Origin: a virus | Length of the DNA: 64,000 bases | Strand: one strand, 5' to 3' | Virus record (IMG/VR): IMGVR_UViG_3300043137_000281 | Shown here: positions 10,855-48,023 of the stretch, piece after piece | How the letters are laid out: each line of letters starts with the position of its first letter | Position numbering within the stretch: the first letter of the stretch is position 1 | Position numbers and translations under genes: made by a program | Notes under the pieces: model-generated | What the model was told of the DNA's origin: nothing | Seen by the model: only the letters and a program-made list of their open reading frames with translations | The model's database searches: none

Positions 10855-10920
10855 GATTCGTTCTCTTTCTTCTGACTACTATTTCACTATACACGATTCG
10901 CAGGGAATGTCAAGCGGTAA
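10855..10920 (-). promoter_or_regulatory. Conserved promoter (TTGACA-17-TATAWT) plus 30-nt leader cassette, copy 1
   Basis: rc: CCGCTTGACATTCCCTGCGAATCGTGTATAGTGAAATAGTAGTCAGAAGAAAGAGAACGAATCATG. Confidence 0.55.
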
Positions 10921-11074
10921 TTCGCATTGGATTACCATGTGGTGTAATTAGTTCGGTATACCGTATGCCCGTTTGGACACGCATGTAATTCCAGAACTTA
11001 CGAGCATCTTCGAAAGATTCGAACATCTTTGTCTTGAGGGCGTAGTTATAATAGCGATACTGGACTTTATACAT
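10912..11074 (-). CDS. Hypothetical small protein (54 aa, MYKVQYRYYNYALKTKMFE...)
   Basis: Hand-translated. The start ATG overlaps the stop of the upstream micro-ORF (ATAATG). Its stop codon lies inside the -35 TTGACA of the next promoter cassette. Confidence 0.3.
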
Positions 11075-11175
11075 TATACAATCTCCGCAGGGACGAGTTC
11101 ATAACCAGCAACAAGGTCTTCACGAACAATCTGGAACATCACGAAGGCGACAACGGCAAGAGCAAACAACCACAT
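11074..11175 (-). CDS. Micro-ORF, 33 aa membrane peptide (MWLFALAVVAFVMFQIVRED...)
   Basis: Starts exactly at the conserved leader ...GTGATTCGAAAATG. Confidence 0.3.
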   Translation of the reverse strand: MWLFALAVVAFVMFQIVREDLVAGYELVPAEIV

Positions 11176-11236
11176 TTTCGAATCACTTTCTTCTCACTGA
11201 CTACTTACTCAATATAGCAGATTCGTCAGTAATGTC
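11176..11236 (-). promoter_or_regulatory. Promoter-leader cassette, copy 2
   Basis: rc: GGTTGACATTACTGACGAATCTGCTATATTGAGTAAGTAGTCAGTGAGAAGAAAGTGATTCGAAAATG. Confidence 0.55.
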
Positions 11237-11404
11237 AACCATTCATTTCGCTGTGCCTTAGTGATTGATTCAATAGAGTTATTCTTTAGTCGCTACACTC
11301 CTTTATAACATGGTCCAGCTGATTCGTCAAGAGTTTTATACAAAAAAGGTCCCCGAGTCGAAACCCGAGGACCTAAGTGTGACCTAGCGAAAGGAAAGTA
11401 AAAC

Positions 11405-11581
11405 TAGGTCATAATGAAACGCGGTGGCATAGCCCGTGGCATACGCCTGTTGATATAGGTAGTGGCATATTGCTCTACGGCCTGCTTGGTACCACGTCGG
11501 TCCGCTACCCAGGAACCGTCAACGTATAGGTCCAGCAGGTAGGTGCCGGGCTTTATCTTCGTAATGGTATAGTCTCGCATG
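11405..11581 (-). CDS. Hypothetical small protein (58 aa)
   Basis: Hand-translated. RBS GGAG 7 nt upstream. Clean sigma70-type promoter TTGACA-17-TATATT at about 11610-11645 (minus strand). Confidence 0.3.
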
Positions 11582-11609
11582 GTAGTTCTCCAGTGTGATT
11601 CGTATTATC

Positions 11610-11645
11610 TATAATATAACACAGACGGACCATGGTGTCAAGATA
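11610..11645 (-). promoter_or_regulatory. Sigma70-type promoter (different class) for the small ORF at 11405..11581
   Basis: rc: TTGACA-CCATGGTCCGTCTGTGT-TATATT. Confidence 0.4.
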
Positions 11646-11826
11646 AAAAACACCGTGGGTGGTCCAAGGAAAACTTTTTTGCCAAAGCATTTATCTCAGC
11701 CTATGGACGTAAGGTTTCTCTCTTTATCCGTGGTCTAGTTCATGGACACTGGATTGCGAATAATATACTAATAGTTAGAGGTTATTGCTAACCTTTATGT
11801 GGGATTTACTAGGGGTTCACCCAGGT

Positions 11827-12024
11827 TCACCAACTTATCCAAGTCAACGTGGTTAGAATAGCCCCTACCGCTGCTGCATTGAGGAGTGTTACCTTTGTTA
11901 TTGCGTTCTTCTTGATATCATTCACTACAATAGCGACATTTAATACCAATAGGATTATACCAATTGCTGTCATAATCATACTAGGATAACCAATACAACG
12001 ATGATTGCTACTACTAATGACCAT
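11827..12024 (-). CDS. Small membrane protein
   Basis: 65 aa, two hydrophobic helices. Confidence 0.3.
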   Translation of the reverse strand: MVISSSNHRCIGYPSMIMTAIGIILLVLNVAIVVNDIKKNAITKVTLLNAAAVGAILTTLTWISW

Positions 12025-12301
12025 TCTATTGGTCCATAGCTACTGATATTCTCTCTTATATACTGTATCATACTGGTATCTCTTTATACAAAAATAATGA
12101 AAATTTGTTCATTTCGGAGCCTGAGTGTTTGAAAACTTTATCGGCGGTTGAGCCACGCGGCTGCGCAACGGTTGAGCGTCTCGGTGCTGTCGTCCAGTCT
12201 TAGTAGCCGTTTTATCCTACGTGGGTTCATCGGTACTGGGTTGGTATAGTCTGTTGCTCGGTATACCTCTCCTAGGAGGATATTGACCATGGACTCTCTA
12301 C

Positions 12302-12535
12302 TCATAGTATCTTCTCGGCTTCTACATACCATTGGTATCGTTCGGGATAGGTGGCTAGATAGTAGGCTTCGGCCTTTGCGAAAGTCTCGAATACACCTAC
12401 CATATTGTCCATACCAGACGAATCATCTGACCCGTAGTTTACATATAACAGATATACCATCATTGTGCTATTCCTAATGCGTTGCGCATTTTCTTCTGAG
12501 CATCTTCCACACCTTGCTGGTATGCTGCTTCCCAT
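12302..12535 (-). CDS. Hypothetical protein
   Basis: ORF 77 aa. Confidence 0.35.
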   Translation of the reverse strand: MGSSIPARCGRCSEENAQRIRNSTMMVYLLYVNYGSDDSSGMDNMVGVFETFAKAEAYYLATYPERYQWYVEAEKIL

Positions 12536-12678
12536 ATCTTCTGTGTGTAAATATGAAGGGTTGTGGCTACATGCTCGGGATTATCTAATGGATATAGGAC
12601 CAGACCACCGCCTAATACTACAGACTTATCATGTGGTGTGGGACAATACCCTGCGAAATATTTTATTGGTTTGTTCAT
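12460..12678 (-). CDS. Hypothetical protein
   Basis: ORF 72 aa. Confidence 0.35.
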   Translation of the reverse strand: MNKPIKYFAGYCPTPHDKSVVLGGGLVLYPLDNPEHVATTLHIYTQKIWEAAYQQGVEDAQKKMRNALGIAQ

Positions 12679-12696
12679 AGTTCATCTCGGCCGGGG

Positions 12697-12879
12697 TTAG
12701 TAGTTTATGACTTGCTTACAAGCATCTTCATATGACAGGTCAACATCGATTACTGTTCCATCTACTAGATTTACATATACCTTCTCTGGCCATGGGCCTG
12801 TAGTGTATGTTACACTGATAACATGATTAACATTGATGTAATGCTTCTGTCCAGATCTTGCTGTAAACTCAACGAACAT
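12697..12879 (-). CDS. Hypothetical protein
   Basis: ORF 60 aa. Confidence 0.3.
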   Translation of the reverse strand: MFVEFTARSGQKHYINVNHVISVTYTTGPWPEKVYVNLVDGTVIDVDLSYEDACKQVINY

Positions 12880-13267
12880 TTAGATAACCCTTCCAGTTCT
12901 CTGGGAATGAACAGTTGATTGCACCTTTGAACATGGGTGCGACATCCTCGTCTTTATTGCCTGCTAGACCACAACCTACACGGGTCACGAAGAACTCCAT
13001 GTCTGGGTTCTCTAGCGTGAATAGGACAAATGTCTCCACATGGCTTCGGACTTCTTCTAGTGATAGACATTCGAAATTTGCAGTCTTGGTCGGGATTGCA
13101 TATGAATTACCTACCAGACCTTCGCCTTGGCCGAGCAATGCGCCGTACCGAAGTCTTGCTTCCAATGCAGCACCAGCACCATGCTTACCGCCTAAGTTAG
13201 AGCCGAATACGAATATGCGGCCGTCTTTGGGTGTGGTCTTGTCAACGTGGAATATCATTGTTTCCAC
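12869..13267 (-). CDS. Hypothetical protein with motif VFGSNLGGKHGAGAALEARLRYG
   Basis: ORF 132 aa, Gly-rich motif. Family not recognised. Confidence 0.45.
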   Translation of the reverse strand: METMIFHVDKTTPKDGRIFVFGSNLGGKHGAGAALEARLRYGALLGQGEGLVGNSYAIPTKTANFECLSLEEVRSHVETFVLFTLENPDMEFFVTRVGCGLAGNKDEDVAPMFKGAINCSFPENWKGYLNVR

Positions 13268-13461
13268 CTATCCTTATATTCAAGATAGTTCAATATGCCG
13301 CTATACAAGCAATATAATGCTCCGCCCACCAGCACCAACAATATTACCAGCGGAAACCTTGCGATGAGAACCGTCAAGATAGCCACGGAGATTGGTATTG
13401 CTAAGGTGATTAGCCAGGCTTTAAGTTTGATATTCATTTGCTTTCCTCTTTGGTGTTCCAC
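13255..13461 (-). CDS. Small membrane protein
   Basis: 68 aa, two TM helices. Confidence 0.35.
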   Translation of the reverse strand: MEHQRGKQMNIKLKAWLITLAIPISVAILTVLIARFPLVILLVLVGGALYCLYSGILNYLEYKDRWKQ

Positions 13462-13664
13462 TTGAAATGGTTGCGAGTATAGACGATGGCGAGTGCAATA
13501 CTCATAGGGATTAGACCCCAGGCTTGGCTAGCGATTATCCATGTTACCCATAGGACTTGATTGACAAGCCCGACTGCCCATGCGGACTGATTGTTGTTAC
13601 CAGCTAGGAGCGTCATCCAGATGGTCATGCAAGACATCAGCCACGGGAGGTATGTTACTATCAT
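13434..13664 (-). CDS. Small membrane protein
   Basis: 76 aa, Trp-rich TM helices. Confidence 0.35.
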   Translation of the reverse strand: MIVTYLPWLMSCMTIWMTLLAGNNNQSAWAVGLVNQVLWVTWIIASQAWGLIPMSIALAIVYTRNHFKWNTKEESK

Positions 13665-14119
13665 GCGGTTTCATCCAGTCTCTGCCGAATTTCAAGGTAA
13701 AACTGATTGTATTTGGCCAACCGAGCGATATCCTTTTCAGTGATGCCCTTGAGGCGACGGATATCGGTGTTGTGGCGCAAGTCTGCCATCTTAACACGCA
13801 TAGCATCAAGATTGGCAAATACCTCTAGCTTATACTCATCGTAGGACTGACCGGGCATCTTGGTCAACACTCGAACGGCACTGATAACACGACTGGTGCA
13901 ACCAATCTCACGCAGGTCTTCCCATGTGGTGTTGGTGTCTTCGATAACGTCATGAAGCAATGCGATGCACTGGAGTTCTTCGTCTGTTGTCTTGAGGTAA
14001 TGCATCACCTTCAATGGGTGAAGAATGTATGGGTTACCGCCGCGGTCAAACTGACCTGCATGGGCATTCGTGGCTAGGACGAGGACTTTACCGAGTAGTT
14101 CACCTTTTTTCATAATCAA
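13661..14119 (-). CDS. HD-domain (p)ppGpp hydrolase (small alarmone hydrolase, RelA/SpoT HD family)
   Basis: HAGQFDRGGNPYILHPLKV...LHDVIEDT is the diagnostic HD motif of the SpoT/Mesh1 hydrolase domain. Confidence 0.65.
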   Translation of the reverse strand: MIMKKGELLGKVLVLATNAHAGQFDRGGNPYILHPLKVMHYLKTTDEELQCIALLHDVIEDTNTTWEDLREIGCTSRVISAVRVLTKMPGQSYDEYKLEVFANLDAMRVKMADLRHNTDIRRLKGITEKDIARLAKYNQFYLEIRQRLDETA

Positions 14120-14182
14120 TCTCTTTCTCTATATTCTTATAGTAGACGATTCGAGACCAAATGTCAAGTGATTCTTACGCCG
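14120..14182 (-). promoter_or_regulatory. Promoter-leader cassette (variant leader), copy 3
   Basis: rc: CACTTGACATTTGGTCTCGAATCGTCTACTATAAGAATATAGAGAAAGAGATTGATTATG. Confidence 0.5.
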
Positions 14183-14282
14183 AACCACCATAAATCTACA
14201 CGGAAGAACCAGCGCCCGTTGTGCTTACCAAAGCCTATACGGAGCATACGGTTGTCGGTGTCAAGCGATATCTGGGTCAAGG

Positions 14283-15713
14283 TCATCCAAACATCACATA
14301 TAAGTTGTTGACGAATAAAAACTGCGTCGATTGTTGAGCATTGACTTGTGAGTATATAATGTCCAAATGCCCGTCGGAGTTCAAATCAAGCATACCCAAC
14401 GCTCTATCGGCAGAATCAAACGGAAACTTATATTCCGCCACAAATAGTTTACCCTTATCATTAAGTATAATTTTGCTGTCTGTGCCGAGGCTTATCAGGT
14501 CAGCAAAGCCATCATTGTTTACATCGTCAACATACAAATCTCTATTCCAGACAGTTCCGCTTACAACAACAGTCTGGTCCAACTGATAGCTACCAGAAGC
14601 ATTCTGCTTTAGAACATCGATTTGGTCTTGCTTATAGTAATTTGTTGATGCGACGGTGGTAGAATGGAGAATAATCTCGTTCTTGCCGTCATTGTCCAAG
14701 TCCGCAATATCTACAGAAGTTACCGAGCGGTTTGCATCATCGTTCAGGTATAGGTTCTGTTTGACAACAAATTTACTGCCGTCCCATGATAGTAACTCAC
14801 TGCCGTTACCAAATCCGGTTAGTATAAGATCAATCTTACCGTCTTTGTTCACATCACTCAGGTGTGACCCAGTATAGTTGAGGCCCTTGGCATTGACTTG
14901 GCTACTCGGAAATTTGCCAGGTAGACCAGATAGCAGATTAAAATTCTGAGTGAAATTGCCCTTACCATCATTGATTAGAAAATACGGGTCAATCGGATTC
15001 GGTTTACCAATATTGCCGACAAAAATATCAATATCGCCATCACTATCAATATCAGCCACAGTGGCGGAATGAGTGAAGTCTAATACAGCAGGCAATTTAC
15101 CGGCTACGAAACCACCGCCTGCTGTGCCGAATAAAAGACTGTTTTGACCACCGGGAAATGGGGAGGCATCATAGCCATGGTCGGCAATGAAAACGTCTTG
15201 AATGCCATCCCCGTTGAAGTCTGCCACAACAGCGCCGTCTGTACCTGCACCAGGATATGATACTTTGGCTGCGGAAGGCACAGGTGTTGCGCTCAATCCA
15301 TTCAGCCGATACGAAAATTCAGATAGGTATACGTCTGTATTCTTTCCGACCAATGTGGGGTCAGCATTCACCGCATGTGATGGATAAAATATAGGAAGAA
15401 CTGACAATATGCCGTTTGCAAAATAGAAACCACCATTCAGACTGAAATTCAAGGTCGCTAGGTCGAAAGTCGGCGTCATTTTCTGATTGATAGAAATGCC
15501 AGCAATCTGTTGAGGTGCCGAGAATGCCGAGGTGGCATTCGGTATAGCCACTGTTGTAGGAGGAGGTGTGGTAGGAGCAGGCGCAAAGGCTGGTACCGTT
15601 ATGATGGGAGGCGCTGAGGTACTACCTTCACCACCACAACCAGACAGCAATAGAGCACCCGCAATTACGCCGCCATACCCGAAGGTGCGAAAATCAGTAT
15701 CAAAAATCATCAC
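14283..15713 (-). CDS. FG-GAP/VCBS-repeat lipoprotein (beta-propeller, integrin-alpha-like)
   Basis: Lipoprotein signal ...LLSGC. At least 6 repeats of DxNxDGxxD: DFNGDGIQDVFIAD, DIDSDGDIDIFVGN, DVNKDGKIDLIL, DLDNDGKNEIILHS, DVNNDGFADLISL, DLNSDGHLDIIY. Confidence 0.65.
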   Translation of the reverse strand: MMIFDTDFRTFGYGGVIAGALLLSGCGGEGSTSAPPIITVPAFAPAPTTPPPTTVAIPNATSAFSAPQQIAGISINQKMTPTFDLATLNFSLNGGFYFANGILSVLPIFYPSHAVNADPTLVGKNTDVYLSEFSYRLNGLSATPVPSAAKVSYPGAGTDGAVVADFNGDGIQDVFIADHGYDASPFPGGQNSLLFGTAGGGFVAGKLPAVLDFTHSATVADIDSDGDIDIFVGNIGKPNPIDPYFLINDGKGNFTQNFNLLSGLPGKFPSSQVNAKGLNYTGSHLSDVNKDGKIDLILTGFGNGSELLSWDGSKFVVKQNLYLNDDANRSVTSVDIADLDNDGKNEIILHSTTVASTNYYKQDQIDVLKQNASGSYQLDQTVVVSGTVWNRDLYVDDVNNDGFADLISLGTDSKIILNDKGKLFVAEYKFPFDSADRALGMLDLNSDGHLDIIYSQVNAQQSTQFLFVNNLYVMFG

Positions 15714-16657: not shown

Positions 16658-16876
16658 TCAAACTCCTTCTTTCATCCACTTGGCCATCCGGGCCCGTTCA
16701 CCAATCTCTTTCCGCACTTCTGGAAAACGTGCCATCATAGCGAGAAGGGTGGACTCGTAGTATCCTGCTTTATAGGACATAAAAGACTCGGAGGGAACAT
16801 TGGCGCCCTCGATAAGAGCCGAAAGCATTTCGGCATCGGTCATTTCAGTAACATCAATCATAACAAAACTCCTCAA
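16658..16876 (-). CDS. Hypothetical protein
   Basis: ORF 72 aa. Confidence 0.35.
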   Translation of the reverse strand: MRSFVMIDVTEMTDAEMLSALIEGANVPSESFMSYKAGYYESTLLAMMARFPEVRKEIGERARMAKWMKEGV

Positions 16877-17048
16877 TCAAAAAAATTGCCAGCGGCCCAG
16901 TAGAAATCACAATCGGAGGAAACCTTGGGCATCCAGGCACCTTGGGGCAGGCTTCCGAACTGCTTGTTGGCTTCTGTCATGGCGGCTAGCACCTTTGGTG
17001 CCTCGACCACAATCTTCTTACCGTTTGCTTCGAACCGGAACTTCTTCA
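16872..17048 (-). CDS. Hypothetical small protein (58 aa, MKKFRFEANGKKIVVEAPK...)
   Basis: Hand-translated. Starts at the conserved leader ...GATTCGTTATG. Confidence 0.3.
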
Positions 17049-17117
17049 TAACGAATCACTTTCTTCTCACTGACTACTATCTAACAGTAGCAGGTTTTAC
17101 CAGAATGTCAACCCCTA
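17049..17117 (-). promoter_or_regulatory. Promoter-leader cassette, copy 4
   Basis: rc: GGGTTGACATTCTGGTAAAACCTGCTACTGTTAGATAGTAGTCAGTGAGAAGAAAGTGATTCGTTATG. Confidence 0.55.
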
Positions 17118-17119
17118 AA

Positions 17120-17356
17120 TTAATAGAGGTTGCGAATATCTTCCATGTTGAAGAGGGCCTGACGAACGGCAATCTTAGCAATAGAAAACTGGTGAGCAGG
17201 AGCATCGCTGGCTTTGGGGTAATATTCCATCAGGATGTTGTTCACGCAGGCGTTGATATCGCTGCTTCCAATCTCTTCGGCGTCATCAAACATCCACAGG
17301 ACATGCTCGGCTACAACGCGGTCAAACTTCGCTACGTTTTCTAGGATATCAATCAT
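17120..17356 (-). CDS. Hypothetical protein
   Basis: ORF 78 aa downstream of a promoter-leader cassette. Confidence 0.4.
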   Translation of the reverse strand: MIDILENVAKFDRVVAEHVLWMFDDAEEIGSSDINACVNNILMEYYPKASDAPAHQFSIAKIAVRQALFNMEDIRNLY

Positions 17357-17427
17357 TTCGAATCACTCTCTTTCTTCTCACTACTATCTAACAATAGCAG
17401 ATTCGCAGGAGAAGTCAAGCGATTCGT
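17357..17427 (-). promoter_or_regulatory. Promoter-leader cassette, copy 5
   Basis: Contains aatgtcaagcg (-35 on the minus strand) ... tagcagattcg ... gaatcactctctttcttctcactact. Confidence 0.55.
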
Positions 17428-19391: not shown

Positions 19392-19656
19392 TAGGAAACC
19401 TCAACCCAAAAAATTCAATCATAACATCACGGACACCTTCGCGGTCGACCGAGTCAAGCGCAAGGTTCTCGTAGCCAACTCGCTTGGCGTAAATGTCGAA
19501 GGCGTCAAGGATCTGGCGCGAGGACGCACCCATATCATATAGACCACCCTCGGCGTAAAAGTCACCGACATAGGCTAGGAAGTTGCAAATCTGGCTCACA
19601 ACACCTTGAATATTCATACCAACAGGTTCGACTCGCATAACAATCTCCTTTTTCAC
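19381..19656 (-). CDS. Hypothetical protein
   Basis: ORF 91 aa downstream of a promoter cassette. Confidence 0.4.
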   Translation of the reverse strand: MKKEIVMRVEPVGMNIQGVVSQICNFLAYVGDFYAEGGLYDMGASSRQILDAFDIYAKRVGYENLALDSVDREGVRDVMIEFFGLRFPNEV

Positions 19657-19716
19657 TCTATATTCTCATAATAGCAGATTCGTAGGAAATGTCAAGCGGT
19701 TTTTGCTGGTTCTGTC
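19657..19716 (-). promoter_or_regulatory. Promoter cassette with divergent leader, copy 6
   Basis: rc: CCGCTTGACATTTCCTACGAATCTGCTATTATGAGAATATAGAGTGAAAAAGGAGATTGTTATG. Confidence 0.5.
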
Positions 19717-20450: not shown

Positions 20451-20728
20451 TAGTCGGTAGGGTACGGCAGGCGGTGGGGACTGTTTACAAAATCGCGGGC
20501 AAAGTCAAGCGCCGCGTCTGCGGTATAGTATGAACGGGTATCAACCCACTCGTTGTTCTCCCAGTAGCGGACCATGTATGCGGTGCGCCAAGGAGCCGTA
20601 GTCGAGTCGTTGTCAACTTCCTCATTCCATACGAGGGCTGTGCGGTGTTCTACCGACCACTCATCAATCAAATCACCCCATCCATCGAGGTTCTTGATAT
20701 ATTCCAATGTCTCTTCAATGGTATACAT
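20450..20728 (-). CDS. Hypothetical protein
   Basis: ORF 92 aa, Trp-rich. Confidence 0.4.
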   Translation of the reverse strand: MYTIEETLEYIKNLDGWGDLIDEWSVEHRTALVWNEEVDNDSTTAPWRTAYMVRYWENNEWVDTRSYYTADAALDFARDFVNSPHRLPYPTD

Positions 20729-20790
20729 AACTTCTCACTTTCTATAATCACTTATAGACGATTCGCAGGCAAATGTCAAGAAAATAAATG
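20729..20790 (-). promoter_or_regulatory. Promoter-leader cassette, copy 7
   Basis: rc: TTTTCTTGACATTTGCCTGCGAATCGTCTATAAGTGATTATAGAAAGTGAGAAGTTATG. Confidence 0.5.
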
Positions 20791-21858
20791 GTCCAATGTG
20801 ATAGGCACAGGCTTCTCAGGCTTTTTTGAGAATACCATAATGCTCTCATCGGTATTGATATCTACCTTGGCACTGGGTCTGGTTATATTCTTTAGCGTGA
20901 GGGACTCCACGTAATAAAATCCCAGACTTTCTGCAATCTCTCTTGTGTCTGCGCACAACTTATAATCGAGGAAATCTTTGATGTTGACTAGCATCTTTCC
21001 ATCATCAACCAAATACTTCTTGATGTTTTCCAGAGTGGGTCTTAGATATGTATCAAGCCATTCTTGATATGTGGTACCTGGCTTATATGACTGGTCACCA
21101 ATTCTATAATCTTCTAGGCTGAAATATGGAGGACTACTAAATGCTACACCGATGGTGTTCTCCCACTCTGGAACAAACGTTTGAGAACCATGGCATCGGA
21201 TGTCATACTTCGCCGATGTGCCATTCACGGCATTATAATCAGTAGCCATTTGGTTGAGACGTTCTACTAACAGATTATTCGGGTCAGTACCATAATATTC
21301 CACTCGGTTCCTCAGTGATGACAGCATTCTAACGCCCCAACCACAAGAGAAGTCATAGTATTTACCGTTGATATTATACCTAGATAGAATGGAGTCAACA
21401 GACTTGATTGGGTAGTTAGACGGCTTCATTGCAACGCCACCACCACTAAGCCGCAAGGCAGCCTCAAAGTTCTTGATATCTGAATCCGTCTTCGGATATA
21501 CCTTGTCACTAGAAAGCACCCTGCTCCAAAAGTATCGAATCAAATCCGTAGATTCAAATACCTCTTCAATTGACCACCGTGGAGACTCCAGTTTCACCTT
21601 GGCCATAAGGTCTTTTACATAGTAACTGGTAATGGTGCTTATGATAGTGCCGCCATTGAATACTGATTCAAGATTTTTCTTGACCAGTTCAAAATCAGGC
21701 TTTTCGTAATACGCAGCCTTCAATTGTAAGCACTTATCCTCTGGCAAGTCCACCCAGTGGTCGGTATGAAGTGTCTTGCCTAGATGGGTAATTTGATATT
21801 TTTTGGCCATACTACAATCAAGCAACCTTCTGGTATGGCTTGTTCCAGTCACCAGCAT
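20776..21858 (-). CDS. DNA methyltransferase (SPPY motif IV; N4-C or N6-A class)
   Basis: DFSCGWG (motif I-like) ... AFSSPPYF (motif IV). Confidence 0.55.
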   Translation of the reverse strand: MLVTGTSHTRRLLDCSMAKKYQITHLGKTLHTDHWVDLPEDKCLQLKAAYYEKPDFELVKKNLESVFNGGTIISTITSYYVKDLMAKVKLESPRWSIEEVFESTDLIRYFWSRVLSSDKVYPKTDSDIKNFEAALRLSGGGVAMKPSNYPIKSVDSILSRYNINGKYYDFSCGWGVRMLSSLRNRVEYYGTDPNNLLVERLNQMATDYNAVNGTSAKYDIRCHGSQTFVPEWENTIGVAFSSPPYFSLEDYRIGDQSYKPGTTYQEWLDTYLRPTLENIKKYLVDDGKMLVNIKDFLDYKLCADTREIAESLGFYYVESLTLKNITRPSAKVDINTDESIMVFSKKPEKPVPITLDHLFS

Positions 21859-22174
21859 TTACGTTGACGTACCAACCCACATCGAAGTAATCTATCTGTG
21901 AATTGCTGTTATCGTGGTTGCCATCGTGCATGGCGGCTTTGACTTCTTCGAGGAAGGCCAATTCCTTACCCTGATAATTGTCTGCTAACCAATACAAATT
22001 AACTTGGCTATAGCCACGGTCATTGTTGACCAGGTCAAGAGGACCAGACTTAAGGTTGAGAACAAGGGTGCTGTAGTTGCGAACCGCAAGACTACCCTTC
22101 ATATTATACTTCTTGAGGACTGCCTTAATCTTAGGGGCAAGACGAGCCTTCTCACTTTGGTTCATATAAGCCAT
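21818..22174 (-). CDS. Hypothetical protein
   Basis: ORF 118 aa. Confidence 0.4.
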   Translation of the reverse strand: MAYMNQSEKARLAPKIKAVLKKYNMKGSLAVRNYSTLVLNLKSGPLDLVNNDRGYSQVNLYWLADNYQGKELAFLEEVKAAMHDGNHDNSNSQIDYFDVGWYVNVNAGDWNKPYQKVA

Positions 22175-22245
22175 AACGAATCACCTTTCTCACTGACTAC
22201 TTTTATAATATACTCGATTCGCAATCAAATGTCAAGCGGTCATTT
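22175..22245 (-). promoter_or_regulatory. Promoter-leader cassette, copy 8
   Basis: rc: CCGCTTGACATTTGATTGCGAATCGAGTATATTATAAAAGTAGTCAGTGAGAAAGGTGATTCGTTATG. Confidence 0.55.
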
Positions 22246-22449
22246 CACGACGGGCGCAAAGGCTTCGGCCGCAAGAGCGGCAGGAGCAACAGGCATCGCC
22301 AAGACTTCTTCGTTGGCGAAGAGCCGCATCACACCGTTGGGCTTGATGAGCCAGACGGCTTTCTGAGGGGCAGGGTTGTTGTACCAGACCCGAACGGGGA
22401 GTTCTTCGTGGATCACAACTAGGTCGAGGGCAGGCTGGGCAACAATCAT
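22240..22449 (-). CDS. Hypothetical small protein
   Basis: 69 aa ORF directly after a promoter-leader cassette. Confidence 0.35.
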   Translation of the reverse strand: MIVAQPALDLVVIHEELPVRVWYNNPAPQKAVWLIKPNGVMRLFANEEVLAMPVAPAALAAEAFAPVVK

Positions 22450-22520
22450 TTCGAATCACTTTCTCTCACTGACTACATTATTGAATATAGCAGATTCGTG
22501 AGGAAAGTCAAGCGAATAAT
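22450..22520 (-). promoter_or_regulatory. Promoter-leader cassette, copy 9
   Basis: rc: TCGCTTGACTTTCCTCACGAATCTGCTATATTCAATAATGTAGTCAGTGAGAGAAAGTGATTCGAAATG. Confidence 0.55.
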
Positions 22521-23569: not shown

Positions 23570-24047
23570 CTGCTCCGATCAATCCCAGAGTGTTTTCGTT
23601 GCCGTAATACATGTATGTACCACTGTCGCCGTTTTTGCCACCATGCTGCGGCGAAAATATGCCATTTGCCACATTTTCTAATACTTTTTCTTTTGTCATG
23701 GACATGATAATGATTTTATCAGGATAAAACATGCTGAAAATCATTTGTGCATAGTCTTGCTTGGGTCGAATTTGTAGAAAAGTGAACAAATCGGTGTTCT
23801 TCATCAAGCAACTACCCTTGATTTCCGATTTCACACCGTCAATGATTCGGTCGTGATCGCTGTTCACCGGTTTATTTACCACTGACCCTCGACCACACAA
23901 AACGTTCTCAGTAATGAGTTCGTAGTATTTGCCTTTTTGCTTGGCACCCATGGCTTTTACAAATTTCATTGGGGTATTGTCGTACCGCGTATCGCGGTCT
24001 TCGGGCAATAAGAGTTCGGGAGAAACTTCTTCATAAATATAAGACAT
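23556..24047 (-). CDS. Hypothetical protein
   Basis: ORF 163 aa. Confidence 0.4.
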   Translation of the reverse strand: MSYIYEEVSPELLLPEDRDTRYDNTPMKFVKAMGAKQKGKYYELITENVLCGRGSVVNKPVNSDHDRIIDGVKSEIKGSCLMKNTDLFTFLQIRPKQDYAQMIFSMFYPDKIIIMSMTKEKVLENVANGIFSPQHGGKNGDSGTYMYYGNENTLGLIGAVEVG

Positions 24048-24106
24048 AAAACCTCACTGATTACTTTCTAAATATAGCAGATTCGCAATCAAATGTCAAG
24101 CACTAT
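24048..24106 (-). promoter_or_regulatory. Promoter-leader cassette, copy 10
   Basis: Contains aaatgtcaagcac ... atagcagattcgcaatc ... cactgattactttc. Confidence 0.5.
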
Positions 24107-24780
24107 TTTTTGTTGGCAGCGTCTTCCTTCTTGCCGATAGGATTACGAACTTCGGCAGAGGCTATCTTGCGGATGTGCTTATGGACCTGTGTCAGGCCAT
24201 GTTCGTCTGCGTGGTCATTATCCACAATGTGCATGTTCTCACGACCGAAATGCTTCTGGAAGTGGCCGATGTTGCCTTGCACTTGCTTGTGCATTCTTTC
24301 GACTTCGTGATGGGGAAGGCTGCGTTCACGTTGGTCGTTGCGCTTCTTGGCTGTTTCCAGTGAGGTGTTGACGAACACCATATGAGTATCGTAGCCCATC
24401 TTACGGAGATGCTCGGAGTGCTTTCTAATCTTCTCTGGGTCTTTACCTGTGCCGTCAATAACCAAGCCAAGGCGACCCTTGTGGTAATGATGTTCACGCT
24501 TCTTGGTTAGTTCCTTGGCATGGGCACGGATTTCTTGGCCCTTCTTGGAGTAGATATTTTCTGGTGTCGCAGCCAAACCATGCTTCTTCATACCCTTCTC
24601 GAATAGGTCATCCGAGTTGACATGCTTGAAGCCAAGACCATGTGTGGTCTTCTTAGATACATATGACTTGCCTGACCCTGGACCGCCTGCTAGGAAGATA
24701 GCCTTACGTCTAGCTGGGTCGTGGATACCCTCATCTAGAACTTCTTCTACGAGGTTGATAAAATCGGCAAATGATAACAT
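24103..24780 (-). CDS. P-loop kinase, polynucleotide-kinase (AAA_33)-like
   Basis: Walker A IFLAGGPGSGKSY (compare T4 Pnk GCPGSGKST). Walker B LVIDGTG. His/Lys-rich C-terminus. Confidence 0.5.
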   Translation of the reverse strand: MLSFADFINLVEEVLDEGIHDPARRKAIFLAGGPGSGKSYVSKKTTHGLGFKHVNSDDLFEKGMKKHGLAATPENIYSKKGQEIRAHAKELTKKREHHYHKGRLGLVIDGTGKDPEKIRKHSEHLRKMGYDTHMVFVNTSLETAKKRNDQRERSLPHHEVERMHKQVQGNIGHFQKHFGRENMHIVDNDHADEHGLTQVHKHIRKIASAEVRNPIGKKEDAANKK

Positions 24781-24816
24781 AATAGACTCCGTAAATATAT
24801 TCTGTCTATTTATATC

Positions 24817-25401
24817 TTACCGACCCTTTACCAAATCGTAAATGTCAGCCCACGTTTCAGCACGATACGCCAGCTTACCACCAACATTCACCATGCTGTT
24901 GGCATTGTGTTCGTGGTCAATCAGAATGCCACGCAGGCCGACTTTTAGACCGGCTTCGACGTTCTCTGGCTTATCTTCAATCCAGAACAGGCCACTGTCT
25001 TTGTAGGGTGCAAGCGCATCGTCTTTGTCTGCACCACAGTCGAGGCAAATCACGCTTTCGATGGCGTCACCGAAGAACTGCTTAAGGTTTGCTTCACGCG
25101 CTTTGACAGCCCATGGGTCCTTGCTCAGGCTGGTAATGACACGGAACTGATAACCCTGCTCTTCATACATACGCCGAACATAGTATAGGGCATCGCGGAA
25201 GGGCTTTAGGAAGCCGATGGCTGCGCTCTCGTTGAACTCACGCACCAGTTCCTTACTCTTCTTCTTGTCAATACCATAGCGGTCGTTGATGCCATAGACA
25301 TCTGTGCGAACTTCTTGATAGCCCTGGAGAGCCATCCACTCAATAAACGTTTGGTTCCAGTCTAGTAGAACACCATCACAGTCGGTCAGTATTAGCTTCA
25401 T
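24817..25401 (-). CDS. HAD-superfamily phosphatase
   Basis: N-terminal LILTDCDGVLLDW (DxDG HAD motif I). Confidence 0.6.
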   Translation of the reverse strand: MKLILTDCDGVLLDWNQTFIEWMALQGYQEVRTDVYGINDRYGIDKKKSKELVREFNESAAIGFLKPFRDALYYVRRMYEEQGYQFRVITSLSKDPWAVKAREANLKQFFGDAIESVICLDCGADKDDALAPYKDSGLFWIEDKPENVEAGLKVGLRGILIDHEHNANSMVNVGGKLAYRAETWADIYDLVKGR

Positions 25402-25458
25402 TATTATCTTTCTCTAAATTACTTGTTGACTATAGCAGATTTTACTGCCATGTCAAGT
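25402..25458 (-). promoter_or_regulatory. Promoter cassette (variant), copy 11
   Basis: rc: AATGACTTGACATGGCAGTAAAATCTGCTATAGTCAACAAGTAATTTAGAGAAAGATAATAATG. Confidence 0.45.
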
Positions 25459-26016
25459 CATTTTCATCACATCGTCAAAAGAAATCGGAGTGAAATTAAT
25501 CTGCTCCACACATACACACAGATAGCGAGGATCGGGATGTAAGTAACTACCAGGCTGTGTGTGACTAGAACTTATTAGCGTTTCATCAATCATAATCCGA
25601 TTGCCATGCAGGTGACCATGAACGTTACGCTTGAACCTCTCACCTACACAGTCTGGATGCAGGGGAATATGAGACAGGATGAACTGATCCACAAACACGC
25701 GAACGCCATGAATCTGTTCGAATCCTGCCTCATAATAGTCCTTATCCTTGAAAATGTCATGGTTTCCACGGATAAGGATTTTCCGCCCATTCAGACGCTT
25801 CACTGTTTCCAGGTGGCGTCGGGCGATTACTACGTCACCCAGATGATACACTGTATCCTGAGGTCTGACGACTCTGTTCCAGTTATCTACCATCGTCTCG
25901 TCCATCTCTTCTGTAGAGGTGAACGGACGCAACGGACTACCATCCGACAACGTGAACTTCTCCCACGTATTGGTGTGCCCGAAATGAGTATCACTGATTA
26001 GAAATCTATTTGCCAT
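25453..26016 (-). CDS. Metallophosphoesterase (calcineurin-like Ser/Thr phosphatase family)
   Basis: ISDTHFGH, RGNHD and HGHLHG motifs. Probable start at MANRFLISD. The ORF track gives 26088. Confidence 0.6.
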   Translation of the reverse strand: MANRFLISDTHFGHTNTWEKFTLSDGSPLRPFTSTEEMDETMVDNWNRVVRPQDTVYHLGDVVIARRHLETVKRLNGRKILIRGNHDIFKDKDYYEAGFEQIHGVRVFVDQFILSHIPLHPDCVGERFKRNVHGHLHGNRIMIDETLISSSHTQPGSYLHPDPRYLCVCVEQINFTPISFDDVMKMT

Positions 26017-26483
26017 TATGCTACCTTCTGCGCGGCCTGCCACTTGGCGAACAGGCCGACTTCCATTCCGTATGCTTCGATTTCCCATGGGCTATCGTAG
26101 TAGGCGTCTTGGCGGCGACCTGGCTTCCATACTTCACCCATCCACTTGCTGTGCATCTTCAAGCCACCACGTGCGGCGACCATGATGCCGCTCTGCAACT
26201 CGTTCTTGGCATGTTGCTTGACATGGACCATTTCATGTGCGAGGGTCTTGATCATCTCATCAATCTTTTGGTTTTTGAGACTGATGGTGAAGAACCGAGG
26301 GTTCCGAGCGCCATCTTCATCGATACATTCACCCTCAACGTCCAGGTTCTTGCTAATCTCAAGGTCGATCATCAGGTTGCGGACCATTCGTGGGTCCATC
26401 AACTTGGCGGCGAAAAATTCAGCAGCCTCGATCAGCGCAATCGCATCGCGCTTTCCGATCATTCCCGTGACATTGATTTGCAT
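26016..26483 (-). CDS. HExxH-motif protein (putative zinc metallopeptidase-like)
   Basis: LAHEMVHVKQH motif. Confidence 0.4.
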   Translation of the reverse strand: MQINVTGMIGKRDAIALIEAAEFFAAKLMDPRMVRNLMIDLEISKNLDVEGECIDEDGARNPRFFTISLKNQKIDEMIKTLAHEMVHVKQHAKNELQSGIMVAARGGLKMHSKWMGEVWKPGRRQDAYYDSPWEIEAYGMEVGLFAKWQAAQKVA

Positions 26484-26546
26484 GATTCGTTCTCTCTACT
26501 AACTACTCTCTTACAATAGCAGATTCGTAGGAAAAGTCAAGTGTTA
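26484..26546 (-). promoter_or_regulatory. Promoter-leader cassette, copy 12
   Basis: Contains aaagtcaagtg ... atagcagattcgtagg ... gattcgttctctctactaactact. Confidence 0.5.
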
Positions 26547-33716: not shown

Positions 33717-33919
33717 TTCACAACTCCATACAAAAGGATGGCGGTAATGAAACCATTAACTACCATCAAAGGTTTATCATTCATCTTGAAAGCAGCATAG
33801 CCCCAAGCGGCGGCACCGATAATCGACAGGATAAGGTCCACCGTATGGAACTCAAATGCCCGACAAGTTGCTGCGACGATGACACACGCGGTGCCGAACC
33901 ATTTTATAATCTCAAGCAT
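33713..33919 (-). CDS. Small membrane protein
   Basis: 68 aa, two TM helices. Confidence 0.3.
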   Translation of the reverse strand: MLEIIKWFGTACVIVAATCRAFEFHTVDLILSIIGAAAWGYAAFKMNDKPLMVVNGFITAILLYGVVK

Positions 33920-34053
33920 ATTTTTCTTCTTCCAACATAAGAGAGATACCAGCGATGAACATCATCAAACCAAAGCCGCCCTGTAGAGCGAAACGAAGAA
34001 AACCAGCTTCTTCAGGAACACACATCACAAACAAACCGGCAAACATCAAGGCA
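33907..34053 (-). CDS. Micro-ORF, 49 aa membrane peptide (MKYALMFAGLFVMCVPEEAGF...)
   Basis: Hand-translated. Starts at the conserved leader ...GATTCGTTATG. Its stop overlaps the next start. Confidence 0.3.
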
Positions 34054-34123
34054 TACTTCATAACGAATCACTTTCTCTTCTCAGCTTATACTTTATAATA
34101 GCATATTCTGAGGAAATGTCAAG
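34054..34123 (-). promoter_or_regulatory. Promoter-leader cassette, copy 13
   Basis: rc: TACCACTTGACATTTCCTCAGAATATGCTATTATAAAGTATAAGCTGAGAAGAGAAAGTGATTCGTTATG. Confidence 0.55.
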
Positions 34124-34454
34124 TGGTAATTTTGTCAAAGCCAAATGAGGCACACCGATAGAGCGTACCGTCATGGTCGGCGACAATATCACCGACAGAC
34201 ATGGACGAGCAAGGACCGAGTTTCTCGACCCGATTGAACAACGAACTCTCTTGCCACAGGTTCATGGCTTCGAATGCTTGCTCGAACCCATCTACATCAA
34301 CGTTAGCAACGTGAGTGTAATATTGGAAGTTTTCAGCTTTGAAAGTGCGCTCGAAACTACGGTCGAAATACGCCTGAATGCGGACACTGGTTTCGCCGTT
34401 ATTGACAGCGGTAATTTCAGCATCTGTTAGCTGGATTTGGTAAACTTTAATCAT
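34119..34454 (-). CDS. Hypothetical protein
   Basis: 111 aa ORF after a promoter-leader cassette. Confidence 0.4.
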   Translation of the reverse strand: MIKVYQIQLTDAEITAVNNGETSVRIQAYFDRSFERTFKAENFQYYTHVANVDVDGFEQAFEAMNLWQESSLFNRVEKLGPCSSMSVGDIVADHDGTLYRCASFGFDKITT

Positions 34455-34524
34455 AACGAATCACTTTCTCTTTCTGACTACTCTTACATCCTAGCAGATT
34501 CGCAGAGAAAGTCAAGTGGTATTT
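34455..34524 (-). promoter_or_regulatory. Promoter-leader cassette, copy 14
   Basis: rc: TACCACTTGACTTTCTCTGCGAATCTGCTAGGATGTAAGAGTAGTCAGAAAGAGAAAGTGATTCGTTATG. Confidence 0.55.
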
Positions 34525-46888: not shown

Positions 46889-46960
46889 ATCGTGACATGG
46901 TACCAGCAGGTGGTAACGCTCCACCCGAACCAACCTTATGAGAGTCGGTCGAACACTTGT
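46889..46960 (-). tRNA. Aberrant 72-nt tRNA-like gene with CAT anticodon loop (possible tRNA-Ile2/Met variant or pseudogene)
   Basis: Acceptor ACCAGTA/TGCTGGT pairs (A1-U72). Anticodon arm CGACT-CTCATAA-GGTTG. The D-arm is truncated (GAAC-AAGT-GTTC) and the T-loop AGCGTTA is non-canonical. Encoded CCA. Confidence 0.35.
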
Positions 46961-46961
46961 T

Positions 46962-47037
46962 CTACTGGTGTGGTGCGAGTGACAGGGTTCGAACCTGTGA
47001 CCTAACGATTATCGGTCGTTTGCTCTACCAACTGAGC
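46962..47037 (-). tRNA. tRNA-Ile(GAT)
   Basis: Acceptor GCGAGTG/CACTCGC, anticodon arm AACGA-CCGATAA-TCGTT, T-loop TTCGAAC, encoded CCA. Confidence 0.8.
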
Positions 47038-47042
47038 TACAC

Positions 47043-47118
47043 TCGCAAATATGGTGGACACTCTGGGGTTCGAACCCAGGACCTACAGGTTAAAAGCCCG
47101 TTGCTCTACCTACTGAGC
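47043..47118 (-). tRNA. tRNA-Lys(TTT)
   Basis: Acceptor GGACACT/AGTGTCC, anticodon loop CTTTTAA, T-loop TTCGAAC, encoded CCA. Confidence 0.8.
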
Positions 47119-47124
47119 TAAGTG

Positions 47125-47200
47125 TCCGTGAAATGGTAGACGATGTAGGATTCGAACCTACGACCTAAGGATTAAGAGTCCCGCGCTCTACCGACTGAGC
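47125..47200 (-). tRNA. tRNA-Lys(CTT)
   Basis: Acceptor GGACGAT/ATCGTCT, anticodon loop CTCTTAA, T-arm GTAGG-TTCGAAT-CCTAC, encoded CCA. Confidence 0.7.
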
Positions 47201-47217
47201 TAATCGTCCATTAAACT

Positions 47218-47418
47218 TTAACCGATGTAGATCCGATGACGTTCGGAATCTACAGATGCACCAACTACACGATGTTCTATGTAGTAGGCATCGATAAACT
47301 GATCACCGTCACGAGTATACACACCGTAGGCAGTCCGAGCTTCTTCCTCAGAAGCATACACACCTAACAACAGCGAACCGTGGAGATCAAACTCACCTAA
47401 CAACGCAAAAACTTCCAT
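47218..47418 (-). CDS. Hypothetical small protein
   Basis: 66 aa after a promoter-leader cassette. Confidence 0.4.
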   Translation of the reverse strand: MEVFALLGEFDLHGSLLLGVYASEEEARTAYGVYTRDGDQFIDAYYIEHRVVGASVDSERHRIYIG

Positions 47419-47483
47419 AACGAATCACTTTCTCTCTGACTATATTCTCATAATAACAGATTCGCAGAGAATGTCAAGCATTA
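47419..47483 (-). promoter_or_regulatory. Promoter-leader cassette, copy 15
   Basis: Contains aatgtcaagcatt ... aacagattcgcagag ... gaatcactttctctctgactat. Confidence 0.55.
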
Positions 47484-47487
47484 TATT

Positions 47488-47562
47488 TGGTGCGCCCGGC
47501 AGGACTCGAACCCGCAACCAAACCGTTATGAGCGGTCGGCTCTACCATTGAGCTACAGGCGC
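47488..47562 (-). tRNA. tRNA-Met(CAT), elongator-type (or tRNA-Ile2 if lysidinylated)
   Basis: Acceptor GCGCCTG/CGGGCGC with a normal G1-C72. Anticodon arm GACCG-CTCATAA-CGGTT, T-loop TTCGAGT, encoded CCA. Confidence 0.75.
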
Positions 47563-47568
47563 AAACTG

Positions 47569-47955
47569 TTATTCAGCAAGCCACTGCTTGAGGGCGCCAA
47601 ACTTTATGTCGAAGCACCACTCTAGGCGCTCGGCACCATAAAACTTGTATGCATCGGCCTCATCTTCGGCATCTGCAATGATTTCTACGGCGCGAACCTT
47701 GTCGCAATTACAAAGCAGCATGGTTTCTGCCACGCGCTCCTTGAACTTCTCAAGGTTAGCCGTCTGACGAATGGCATCTTCGTCAATCTGCACCGAAAGT
47801 TTCTCAACCAGATTTTTGAAATCTGCATCAAAATTCTCGATAGACGCAAAAGTAATGCCACGAGGGCGAAAACCATACACATCCTTGTGTAGGTCAGAAT
47901 AAATGTCGCCATCTCGACTATCGGTGGCGACATTTATTTCAGCAAGCGTAAGCAT
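47569..47955 (-). CDS. Hypothetical protein
   Basis: 128 aa after a promoter-leader cassette. Confidence 0.45.
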   Translation of the reverse strand: MLTLAEINVATDSRDGDIYSDLHKDVYGFRPRGITFASIENFDADFKNLVEKLSVQIDEDAIRQTANLEKFKERVAETMLLCNCDKVRAVEIIADAEDEADAYKFYGAERLEWCFDIKFGALKQWLAE

Positions 47956-48023
47956 TTCGAATCACCTTCTCATCAACTACTCTTTCTTTATAGCTGATTC
48001 GCAGGTAAATGTCAAGCGATAAA
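47956..48023 (-). promoter_or_regulatory. Promoter-leader cassette, copy 16
   Basis: rc: ATCGCTTGACATTTACCTGCGAATCAGCTATAAAGAAAGAGTAGTTGATGAGAAGGTGATTCGAAATG. Confidence 0.55.

Follow-up and report, generated by a model that had tools for sequence, protein, structure and literature searches.

A repeated promoter-leader cassette with two GANTC-core boxes probably starts early genes and marks crossover points in an uncultured T4-type phage

The 64-kb stretch of viral DNA analysed here (IMG/VR record IMGVR_UViG_3300043137_000281; hereafter the window) carries 16 copies of a short promoter-leader cassette, each ending at the start codon of a gene. We suggest that these cassettes are probably modular units that start early gene expression in an uncultured T4-type, pelagimyophage-like phage; comparison with relatives shows that they double as crossover points. 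The initial annotation of this DNA had counted at least 16 copies on the minus strand, and a motif profile built from the copies and scanned over the 64-kb window (nhmmer) recovers exactly those 16 at coordinates that agree (E from 1e-18 to 8.5e-8), the next match having E = 0.24. The starting set for the profile came from a listing of every TTGAC(A/T) with its downstream sequence, in which 16 minus-strand sites shared far more than a promoter consensus. All 16 (numbered here from the high-coordinate end) are minus-strand and co-directional with the genes, span 10852-48019, and end at an ATG that opens an open reading frame (ORF) of 33-194 aa. They sit among small, mostly unannotated ORFs at 10.8-48 kb, with none in the replication-gene block at 48-64 kb. 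The unit, of about 75 bp, occupies the entire intergenic gap; in most copies the stop codon of the upstream gene lies inside the -35 element or within 4-9 nt of it, and in at least seven the TGA within TTGACA is that stop codon.

The anatomy of the cassette was drawn from 124 unique copies, pooled from related contigs and the window itself. First comes an A/T tract at -45..-40 (A/T fraction 0.8-0.9), followed in order by G/C, TTGACA, TTT, a variable 5-6 nt, CGAWTC, TGC and TATWWT; after this -10 element come ~6 variable nt, (A/T)(G/A)TAG(T/A)CAG(T/A)GAGA, a purine tract of variable length, TGATTCG, two A/T and ATG. The -35 element, GCTTGACA, is near-consensus for sigma-70, and the spacer measures 16 bp in 84 of the 124 copies and 17 bp in 39. 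The promoters match 9-11 of 12 consensus positions, and in the 10-30 kb stretch that was scanned TG precedes the -10 in 8 of 14 cassettes, making it an extended -10 (TGn). An independent consensus scan of 10-30 kb returned seven promoter-like sites with 11 of 12 matches, six of which are cassettes, the seventh being a generic promoter at 11641. The ATG lies 51-63 nt past the -35. Together with the direction of the genes, the near-consensus -35, the 16- or 17-bp spacer, the TGn-extended -10, the A/T tract and this distance to the ATG bear out, at the level of sequence, the promoter reading of the initial annotation.

The leader is purine-rich and 16-29 nt long, starts with AGTAGTCAGTGAGAAGAAAG..., supplies the ribosome-binding site, and would begin at +1 if transcription starts 7 nt after the -10. 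Its earlier description as nearly invariant was overstated. CGAATCTGCTA is exact in 7 of the 16 window copies; the 27-nt leader AGTAGTCAGTGAGAAGAAAGTGATTCG was found only twice in the window with 3 mismatches allowed, because the copies differ by insertions and deletions (indels) in the purine tract, and five copies lack the 3' part. The leader box takes the form GTGATTCG followed by 2-3 A/T and ATG in nine of the 16, is inverted as AACGAATCATG (AACGAATC-ATG) in cassettes 5 and 16, and is absent from cassettes 6, 7, 10, 11 and 14, while the spacer CGAATC is absent from cassettes 4, 6 and 13.

The two boxes were characterized across the 124 unique copies. The spacer GANTC is present in 95, and in 93 of these its offset is fixed, with the G 8 nt before the -10. 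It thus occupies -20..-16, 3 bp upstream of the -10 hexamer, its centre falling at -18 if the start, which is inferred, lies 7 nt after the -10 and at -19 if it lies 8 nt after. Spacer boxes read GATTCG on either strand, most commonly as CGAATCT (AGATTCG). The leader box, at about +18..+26 and centred at ~+20..+23, reads TGATTCG in 76 copies, inverted CGAATCA in 7, CGAGTCG in 6 and TGAGTCG in 1, and the gap between box and ATG is 2 nt in 73 of the 76 TGATTCG copies. Central bases of spacer and leader box combine as (A,T) in 51 copies, (T,T) in 9, (A,A) in 7 and (A,G) in 8, and never as (T,A). Eighteen copies have the spacer box only and 19 the leader box only, the distance between the boxes varies by at least 3 bp, and the inverted whole box (CGAATCA) occurs in one cassette sub-family. 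In the window, 17 of the 41 YGAKTCG matches fall in cassettes and 3 more are promoter-associated.

The initial annotation had taken the two boxes for a dyad bound by a dimeric regulator. This is not supported, as the inverted orientation is not kept, and a symmetric dimer operator is disfavoured by orientation changes that occur without compensation, by the variable spacing and by the copies in which either box is absent. What fits best is that the boxes behave as independent, DNA-level protein recognition sites, rather than as an RNA helix or a symmetric operator. This reading draws on the GANTC core at both sites, the A/T flip of the central base, the inversions, a box inside coding sequence (in cassette 11, CGAGTCG stands right after the ATG, as ATG-CGAGTCG at 19629) and two boxed promoters outside the cassettes.

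The cassettes are conserved well beyond the window. In IMG/VR, one pattern scan located the promoter part in 47 stretches and another the leader part in 78, and a profile search of these loci yielded 179 cassettes in 67 loci whose identity to the window, in the stretches that align, runs from 98% down to ~68%. The most distant group keeps TTGACATTT, CGAATC or CGATTC, a TATGAT-type -10, AGTAG(T/A)CAG, GTGATTCG and ATG, and the segments between these conserved blocks differ. Orthologous cassettes are 90.7% identical, compared with 83% and 86% for the flanking 100 nt of coding DNA. Furthermore, six related loci share, in their orthologous cassettes, the unusual -10 of cassette 3, TAGGAT. That cassettes are more conserved than their flanks and keep such private oddities argues that the blocks are under selection and not merely homogenised by conversion.

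Comparison of the window with the related loci (blastn) shows that breaks in synteny coincide with cassettes. The suggestion of the initial annotation that the element might be a recombination-prone repeat shuffling early genes is strongly upheld by relatives in which deletions, insertions and transpositions have hybrid cassettes at their junctions, the left part of such a cassette visibly resembling one window cassette and the right part another. This can be best illustrated by the kinase-like gene at 24103..24780, whose 3' end and a single cassette are followed by the 163-aa gene in the window, by the 69-aa gene in four loci (L020, L026, L030, L039) and by the 118-aa gene in two others (L006, L046). 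Cassette 7 is one of the junction partners in two different deletions or insertions of relatives. The 69-aa gene with its flanking cassettes stands at the position equivalent to 17.4 kb of the window in L046 and L032; a methyltransferase-like gene (20776-21858) adjoins the cassette equivalent to that at 48019, beside a QueC-like ORF, in L077 and L082; and L011 and L071 are without the segment between the cassettes at 48019 and 47481. In addition, a single cassette replaces cassettes 15 and 16 (11242 and 10917) in L015, the 252-aa gene upstream of cassette 11 is absent from L046 and L030, and the 33-aa micro-ORF of cassette 15 is absent from L046 and L093. Among 97 distinct junction events, at least one end falls no more than 15 nt from a cassette in 26, and both ends do so in 10, against a baseline in which cassettes and their margins make up ~3% of the aligned DNA, and at least five events are independent and run from cassette to cassette. 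We regard this as direct comparative evidence for gene shuffling by way of cassettes. As a separate observation, L046, L006 and L039 have 1.0-1.4 kb of extra DNA inserted precisely where the cassettes ending at 14171 and 34126 begin on their upstream side (window 14169-14171 and 34123-34138).

We propose that the host RNA polymerase holoenzyme would fire at each cassette along the co-directional array of small accessory genes, with the predicted start site at the first base of the conserved leader; as no terminators separate the genes, transcription would add up along the array. The repeated 60-75 bp of homology at the same time provides a crossover point for deletions, insertions and transpositions of whole genes, as the comparison with relatives shows. 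Several points weigh against this picture or limit it. Many indels between relatives coincide with gene boundaries devoid of cassettes (those at 28-33 kb, for example), so cassettes are one route of shuffling among several, and against a null of "any gene boundary" the enrichment of events with both ends at cassettes is only ~2-5 fold. Promoter activity, start site and early timing, like the reader of the boxes, are predictions from sequence alone. Moreover, the leader box is anchored to the ATG and not to the -10, and its GUGAU may extend Shine-Dalgarno pairing with the 16S rRNA 3' end, so that part of its conservation may be translational.

The closest known kind of element is the promoter-early stem-loop (PeSL) of the T4-like phages RB49/phi1, T4/PST and KVP40/nt-1 (Arbiol et al. 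2010, PMC2839356; Comeau et al. 2014, PMC4122927). PeSLs combine a strong sigma-70-like promoter (TTGACA, N17, TATAAT) with a stem-loop that acts as terminator or attenuator; in PST/nt-1 this stem-loop precedes the promoter, in RB49 it sits between -35 and -10 or covers the -10, and mini-circles can be excised by recombination between neighbouring elements (PMC2839356, PMC4122927). The likenesses are as follows: both recur as short cassettes in the gaps between small accessory genes, within a hyperplastic region of a T4-type myovirus, with the upstream stop codon in an A/T-rich stretch, a promoter that is near-consensus for sigma-70 at the sequence level and a Shine-Dalgarno sequence and start codon at the 3' end, and in both, indels and gene replacements between close relatives have their crossovers inside the elements. 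The cassettes are therefore a PeSL-like promoter-leader family in a new phage lineage. Unlike the described PeSLs, they show no supported stem-loop or terminator, the sequence of their leader is itself conserved all the way between predicted start site and ATG, and they hold two GANTC-core boxes at fixed positions. The sequence-conserved 5' untranslated region and the paired GANTC-core boxes are thus what is new, and the stem-loop, one of the defining features of PeSLs, is what is missing.

A stem-loop or terminator upstream is not enriched (60 nt upstream, mean z -0.43), and a stem over the -10 as in the PeSLs of RB49 (CTGCTAT / TAGTCAG) is paired in 71%, compared with 73% when the arms are permuted, with no covariation. 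The terminator scan returned 16 candidates where 15.4 were expected, only one of them near a cassette, and 10-30 kb contains only one strong intrinsic terminator (11374-11347). Folding of the leaders with 33 nt of coding sequence, a check proposed by the initial annotation, gave minimum free energies (MFE) of -2.6 to -8.5 kcal/mol, which is weak, and no structure common to the cassettes. The stretch from the Shine-Dalgarno sequence to the AUG is unpaired with a probability of 0.62, as against 0.54 in shuffled leaders. No Rfam family matches the leaders, the matches in the window being tRNAs and one GOLLD RNA only. The common translational or RNA-stability control suggested by the initial annotation is neither favoured nor disfavoured by these results. 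Where the variable part of the spacer is paired with the leader, the advantage of cognate over non-cognate pairs is only 0.5 kcal/mol, and shared descent within sub-families could explain this gap.

Among the alternatives, those that deny the boxes a role in DNA fare worst. It is highly improbable that the cassettes are recent duplicates homogenised by gene conversion, with blocks that have no function beyond that of a generic promoter. Recombination inside cassettes clearly occurs and could homogenise the copies, yet the same blocks persist in phages that are only ~68% identical where aligned while the segments between them vary, the private TAGGAT of cassette 3 follows orthology across six loci, the cassettes exceed flanking coding DNA in conservation, and the boxes keep fixed offsets. 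Equally hard to sustain is a CGAAUC-GAUUCG hairpin that hides the ribosome site in read-through RNA, so that only transcripts from the cassette's own promoter are translated. In phage T4, hairpins of this sort occlude the ribosome site of the lysozyme gene (gene e) and of soc, and the operators of RegA are translational; like the cassettes, these systems have a conserved sequence beside the AUG in many early mRNAs and read-through from upstream promoters. The two 6-mers are reverse complements in 51 of the 124 copies, genes packed without terminators lead one to expect read-through, and cognate spacer-leader duplexes hold the 0.5 kcal/mol advantage given above. However, the central-base combinations, (T,T), (A,A) and (A,G) included and (T,A) never seen, reveal no compensatory change, the helix appears in the MFE folds of only 2 of the 16 copies with a z of ~-1 on average (three copies below -2), the stem overlapping the -10 is no better than permuted arms, and a 6-bp helix closing a ~40-nt loop is marginal. 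The read-through hairpin is thus largely refuted by the absence of covariation; the cassettes further differ from the T4 systems in that the box also stands in untranscribed DNA and in inverted form. A translational role for the leader box alone is somewhat less remote, though still unlikely. Here GAAAGUGAUUCG would act in the mRNA as an extended Shine-Dalgarno sequence or a RegA-like repressor operator, and the spacer 6-mer would be coincidental or unrelated. In its favor, the box stands exactly 2 nt before the AUG in almost every TGATTCG copy, GAGAAAGUGAUU can, by our own reading, form 12-13 nt of pairing (2 mismatches) with the conserved 16S rRNA 3' end, box-less copies put a canonical GGAG or GAGG nearer the ATG, and non-cassette genes have ribosome sites of the GGAG/GGTGA type. 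However, the reverse-complement 6-mer is fixed in the untranscribed spacer of 95 of the 124 copies, for which the chance is of order 1e-3, the inverted CGAATCA leaders and the ATG-CGAGTCG arrangement give other RNAs from the same double-stranded DNA site, and a non-cassette promoter has its box at ~+9, far from the ATG.

A rival that leaves the cassettes as promoters is that the GATTCG boxes are operators of a sequence-specific repressor, encoded by phage or host, that shuts off the whole early set, the spacer site blocking binding of RNA polymerase and the site at ~+20 acting as a roadblock. We consider this a real, if minority, possibility. One site between -35 and -10 and another just past the start form a classic repression layout, the spacer box has a fixed offset, and nearly half of the YGAKTCG matches in the window (20 of 41) are promoter-associated. 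Pelagimyophages are without the early/middle switch genes of T4, namely alt, modA/B, asiA and motA (PMC7029224), so some other shut-off mechanism is needed. Against the repressor stand the failure to detect any DNA-binding family among 47 small ORFs of the region, the single 6-7 bp half-sites whose orientation is not kept and whose spacing varies, which is unusual for dimeric repressors, and the roughly one quarter of copies that lack one box.

If the boxes are instead independent sites for an activator, the most specific candidate reader, which we put forward tentatively, is a GcrA-like sigma-70 cofactor that reads N6-methylated GANTC. In Caulobacter, the MEME consensus of GcrA is TGATTCG, more broadly YGAKTCK (Haakonsen et al. 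2015, PMC4647560), and the protein, which acts as a monomer, recognises its methylated sites either in the spacer, centred at -20+/-1 or -30+/-2, or at +5..+30 (Wu et al. 2023, PMC9976885). As in the GcrA/CcrM promoters of Caulobacter crescentus, the phage box TGATTCG equals the consensus, boxes are single and stand in either orientation, and, counted from the predicted start, one would lie in the -35/-10 spacer near -20 and another in +5..+30, two per promoter being allowed. The leader variants CGAGTCG and TGAGTCG match YGAKTCG, and the Y is met by the spacer forms CGAATCG, CGAATCA and CGATTCG. The group to which SAR11, an alphaproteobacterium, has been assigned is reported to possess GcrA and CcrM (PMC2877005), and cultured relatives of the phage infect SAR11 or OM43. 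It would be tempting to go further and to see in the cassettes early promoters hard-wired to the alphaproteobacterial epigenetic cell-cycle machinery, with two GcrA boxes per cassette, a GcrA-loaded holoenzyme, and the N6-adenine methylation of injected versus replicated DNA as an early on/off switch. This idea is speculative, and we hold it to be possible rather than probable.

Several points speak against GcrA. With a start 7 nt after the -10, the centre of the phage spacer box (~-18) misses the published -20+/-1 by 1 bp, and the commonest form of this box, AGATTCG, misses the Y of YGAKTCK. The cassettes differ from GcrA promoters also in that they already hold a consensus -35 and -10, and it is hard to see why they would require an activator. 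A tblastn search with a Caulobacter GcrA sequence turned up no GcrA-like ORF, either in the window or in 102 related loci, which is a weak negative, and PF07750 has no match among 47 small ORFs of the region. A CcrM-like METHYLTRANSFERASE was sought in the PF01555-type ORF at 20776..21858 and rejected, as this ORF has SPPY, not the beta-class DPPY, and another order of motifs. In Caulobacter phage Cr30 (first 50 kb) there are no TTGACA-type cassettes and the box is not enriched. Pelagibacter myophage HTVC008M has related promoters (GCTTGACTTTT..TGTGATATAAT) without boxes and strongly avoids GANTC, with 29 sites against ~157 expected in 100 kb. In the window itself GANTC is mildly depleted (observed/expected 0.81, or 0.71 without the cassettes), which is not decisive. 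A literature search for TGATTCG returned primers and unrelated matches only. We conclude that the match to GcrA sites is striking but a lead only, and that a repressor acting on the same boxes is an equally ordinary alternative. Were the GcrA reading true, no earlier phage promoter family would have been read by way of GANTC methylation in the host, the class of the host would be predictable from phage sequence alone, and an early switch would be built into a T4-type lineage in whose cultured relatives, the pelagimyophages, the T4 genes alt, mod, asiA and motA are missing.

The window also holds minus-strand candidates for DNA hypermodification: a beta-glucosyl-HMC-alpha-glucosyltransferase-like ORF (phrog_842, 6639-7580), an ORF of the TET-associated glycosyltransferase family (PF20691, 7580-8431), a 2OG-Fe(II) oxygenase (29298-29831) and a dCMP deaminase (32725-33156). 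Cytosines in the phage DNA may therefore be modified, which would affect any box-reading protein. Short palindromes are strongly avoided in the window (GTAC 58 against 194 expected, GATC 83 against 259, CCGG 64 against 140), which suggests restriction pressure from the host; HTVC008M also avoids GATC.

The individual cassettes vary around the common plan, as follows (all minus-strand; the -35 position is the first T of its TTGAC). Cassette 1 (47953..48019; -35 TTGACA at 48015, ATG at 47955) has the spacer box CGAATCA (other strand TGATTCG), a -10 of TATAAA and the leader box GGTGATTCGAA, and opens a 128-aa ORF. Directly after tRNA-Met (47488-47562), cassette 2 (47416..47481; -35 47477, ATG 47418) combines CGAATCT, TATTAT and TGATTCG ahead of a 66-aa ORF. 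Cassette 3 (34452..34519; -35 TTGACT 34515, ATG 34454, 111-aa ORF) has CGAATCT, TAGGAT and TGATTCG; in cassette 4 (34059..34126; -35 TTGACA 34122, its TGA the upstream stop; ATG 34061), AGAATAT stands in place of a spacer box, the leader box is TGATTCG and the ORF encodes 49 hydrophobic residues. Cassette 5 (26481..26544; -35 26540, ATG 26483, 155-aa ORF) has CGAATCT, TATTGT and the inverted AACGAATCATG. Cassette 6 (25399..25460; -35 25456, ATG 25401) is a degenerate copy with neither box, and precedes a 194-aa NT5C/HAD-type nucleotidase. Cassette 7 (24045..24103; -35 24099, ATG 24047, 163-aa ORF) has CGAATCT and a short leader with a GAGG Shine-Dalgarno sequence and no box, whereas both cassette 8 (22447..22515; -35 22511, ATG 22449, 69-aa ORF; CGAATCT) and cassette 9 (22172..22239; -35 22235, ATG 22174, 118-aa ORF; CGAATCG) have the leader box TGATTCG.

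Downstream of these, cassette 10 (20726..20783; -35 20779, ATG 20728, 92-aa ORF) has CGAATCG and no leader box, the TGA of its -35 being the stop of the methyltransferase-like gene at 20776..21858. In cassette 11 (19626..19699; -35 19695, ATG 19638, 85-aa ORF), this TGA is the stop of the 252-aa gene, the spacer box is CGAATCT and AAGGAG provides a canonical Shine-Dalgarno sequence. Cassette 12 (17354..17427; -35 17418, ATG 17356, 78-aa ORF) has CGAATCT and TGATTCG with an extra CGAATCG just upstream of the -35. Cassette 13 (17047..17115; -35 17111, ATG 17049, 58-aa ORF) has AAAACCT in place of a spacer box, a -10 of TACTGT and the full consensus leader. Cassette 14 (14111..14171; -35 14167, ATG 14113), with CGAATCG and no leader box, opens a 150-aa protein with a SpoT/RelA-type HD domain; cassette 15 (11173..11242; -35 11238, ATG 11175), with CGAATCT and the full consensus leader, opens the 33-aa hydrophobic micro-ORF; and cassette 16 (10852..10917; -35 10913, ATG 10854, 110-aa ORF) has CGAATCG and the inverted AACGAATCATG. 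The micro-ORFs had been described as membrane peptides, which suits the hydrophobic 33-aa (11175..11074) and 49-aa (34061..33912) products but not the 58-aa one (17049..16873), which is not hydrophobic.

The two boxed promoters outside the cassettes are both on the minus strand. One is a sigma-70-type promoter at 11581..11646 (TTGACA, 17 bp, TATATT), with CGAATCA (other strand TGATTCG) at ~+6 to +12 and an ATG at 11580. The other, at 11290..11374, consists of the strong intrinsic terminator, with a 12-bp stem, followed by a promoter-like site, TTGACGAATCAGC...TATAAA (~11330), whose box overlaps the 3' end of the -35 and is centred near -28. There is also a second, generic sigma-70-like class, (G)GTTGACA ... 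TGnTATAGT/TATATT, with minus-strand -35s at 62300, 61316, 53422, 52897, 46548, 45293, 41505 and 9087; these have no GATTCG boxes and no common leader, and precede replication genes and tRNA blocks. In HTVC008M, a scan of NC_020484 shows early promoters of the form GCTTGAC(T/A)TTT ... TG(T/n)GATATAAT, which resemble the cassettes in their extended -10 and belong to a related lineage, with the curli operon and T4-type replication genes in common, but have neither a GANTC box nor a common leader.

That the phage is an uncultured T4-type myovirus related to pelagimyophages, as its sequence indicates, follows from a gp61-type primase, closest to those of Pelagibacter phage Mosig (41%) and of cyanomyophages, and from the synteny of a curli operon. 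This minus-strand curli (type VIII secretion) operon (453-5062) comprises CsgF (4613-5062), CsgG (3778-4662, E 1e-52) and a curlin-repeat protein (3018-3839); next come a FecR-domain protein (1904-3049) and a 484-aa ORF. Its gene order is that of gp014-gp018 of HTVC008M, and a CsgF-CsgG-curlin operon is a known hallmark of pelagimyophages (PMC7029224). CsgG is only ~40% identical to its plasmid counterparts, in Pseudoalteromonas and E. coli. The window further encodes 25 tRNA genes, ribonucleotide reductase and DNA ligase. No cultured phage matches the 20 kb from 10000-30000 (megablast), and in a 596-Gb collection of bacterial genomes 109 loci match the promoter pattern, a chance-level number, with no full cassette among them.

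Other features of the region are of interest in their own right. A full-length GOLLD RNA (Rfam RF02032; 43734-44196, minus strand; 194 bits against a gathering threshold of 150, E 3.6e-53) lies within the cluster of 25 tRNAs, with tRNA-Lys(ctt) (44060-44133) embedded in it. Genes of the cassette region, all on the minus strand, include the SpoT/RelA-type HD protein (13661-14113), a possible (p)ppGpp hydrolase, and the NT5C-type 5'-nucleotidase (24817-25401), both of which appear cassette-driven, as well as a zeta-toxin/AAA_33-type kinase (24103-24780) and a PdeM-like metallophosphoesterase (25453-26088), which lie immediately upstream of cassettes. The methyltransferase-like ORF at 20776-21858 (minus strand) has motif I DFSCGWG and then SPPY, matches PF01555 at its C-terminus only, and has no match in NCBIfam or among solved structures in the PDB. 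A second such ORF (22508-23569, minus strand) matches at its N-terminus the last ~40 positions of PF01555 only, and two cassettes and two small genes separate the two.

In summary, our analysis extends the PeSL idea, in which repeated regulatory cassettes form a plug-and-socket system for the shuffling of accessory genes, beyond the T4-like phages of enterobacteria and Vibrio, to an aquatic, uncultured lineage with pelagimyophages as relatives. All the support for shuffling comes from metagenomic relatives, in the form of clean hybrid junctions, and indicates that a stem-loop is not needed for this role. The cassette profile also points to the true start codons of early ORFs so small (33-70 aa) that they escape gene callers. 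The two GANTC-core boxes came as a surprise, since they would give otherwise consensus promoters a second, DNA-level input; their match to GcrA sites offers a hypothesis for how early genes might be timed without the early/middle switch genes of T4, and may bear on the kind of bacterium that this phage infects.

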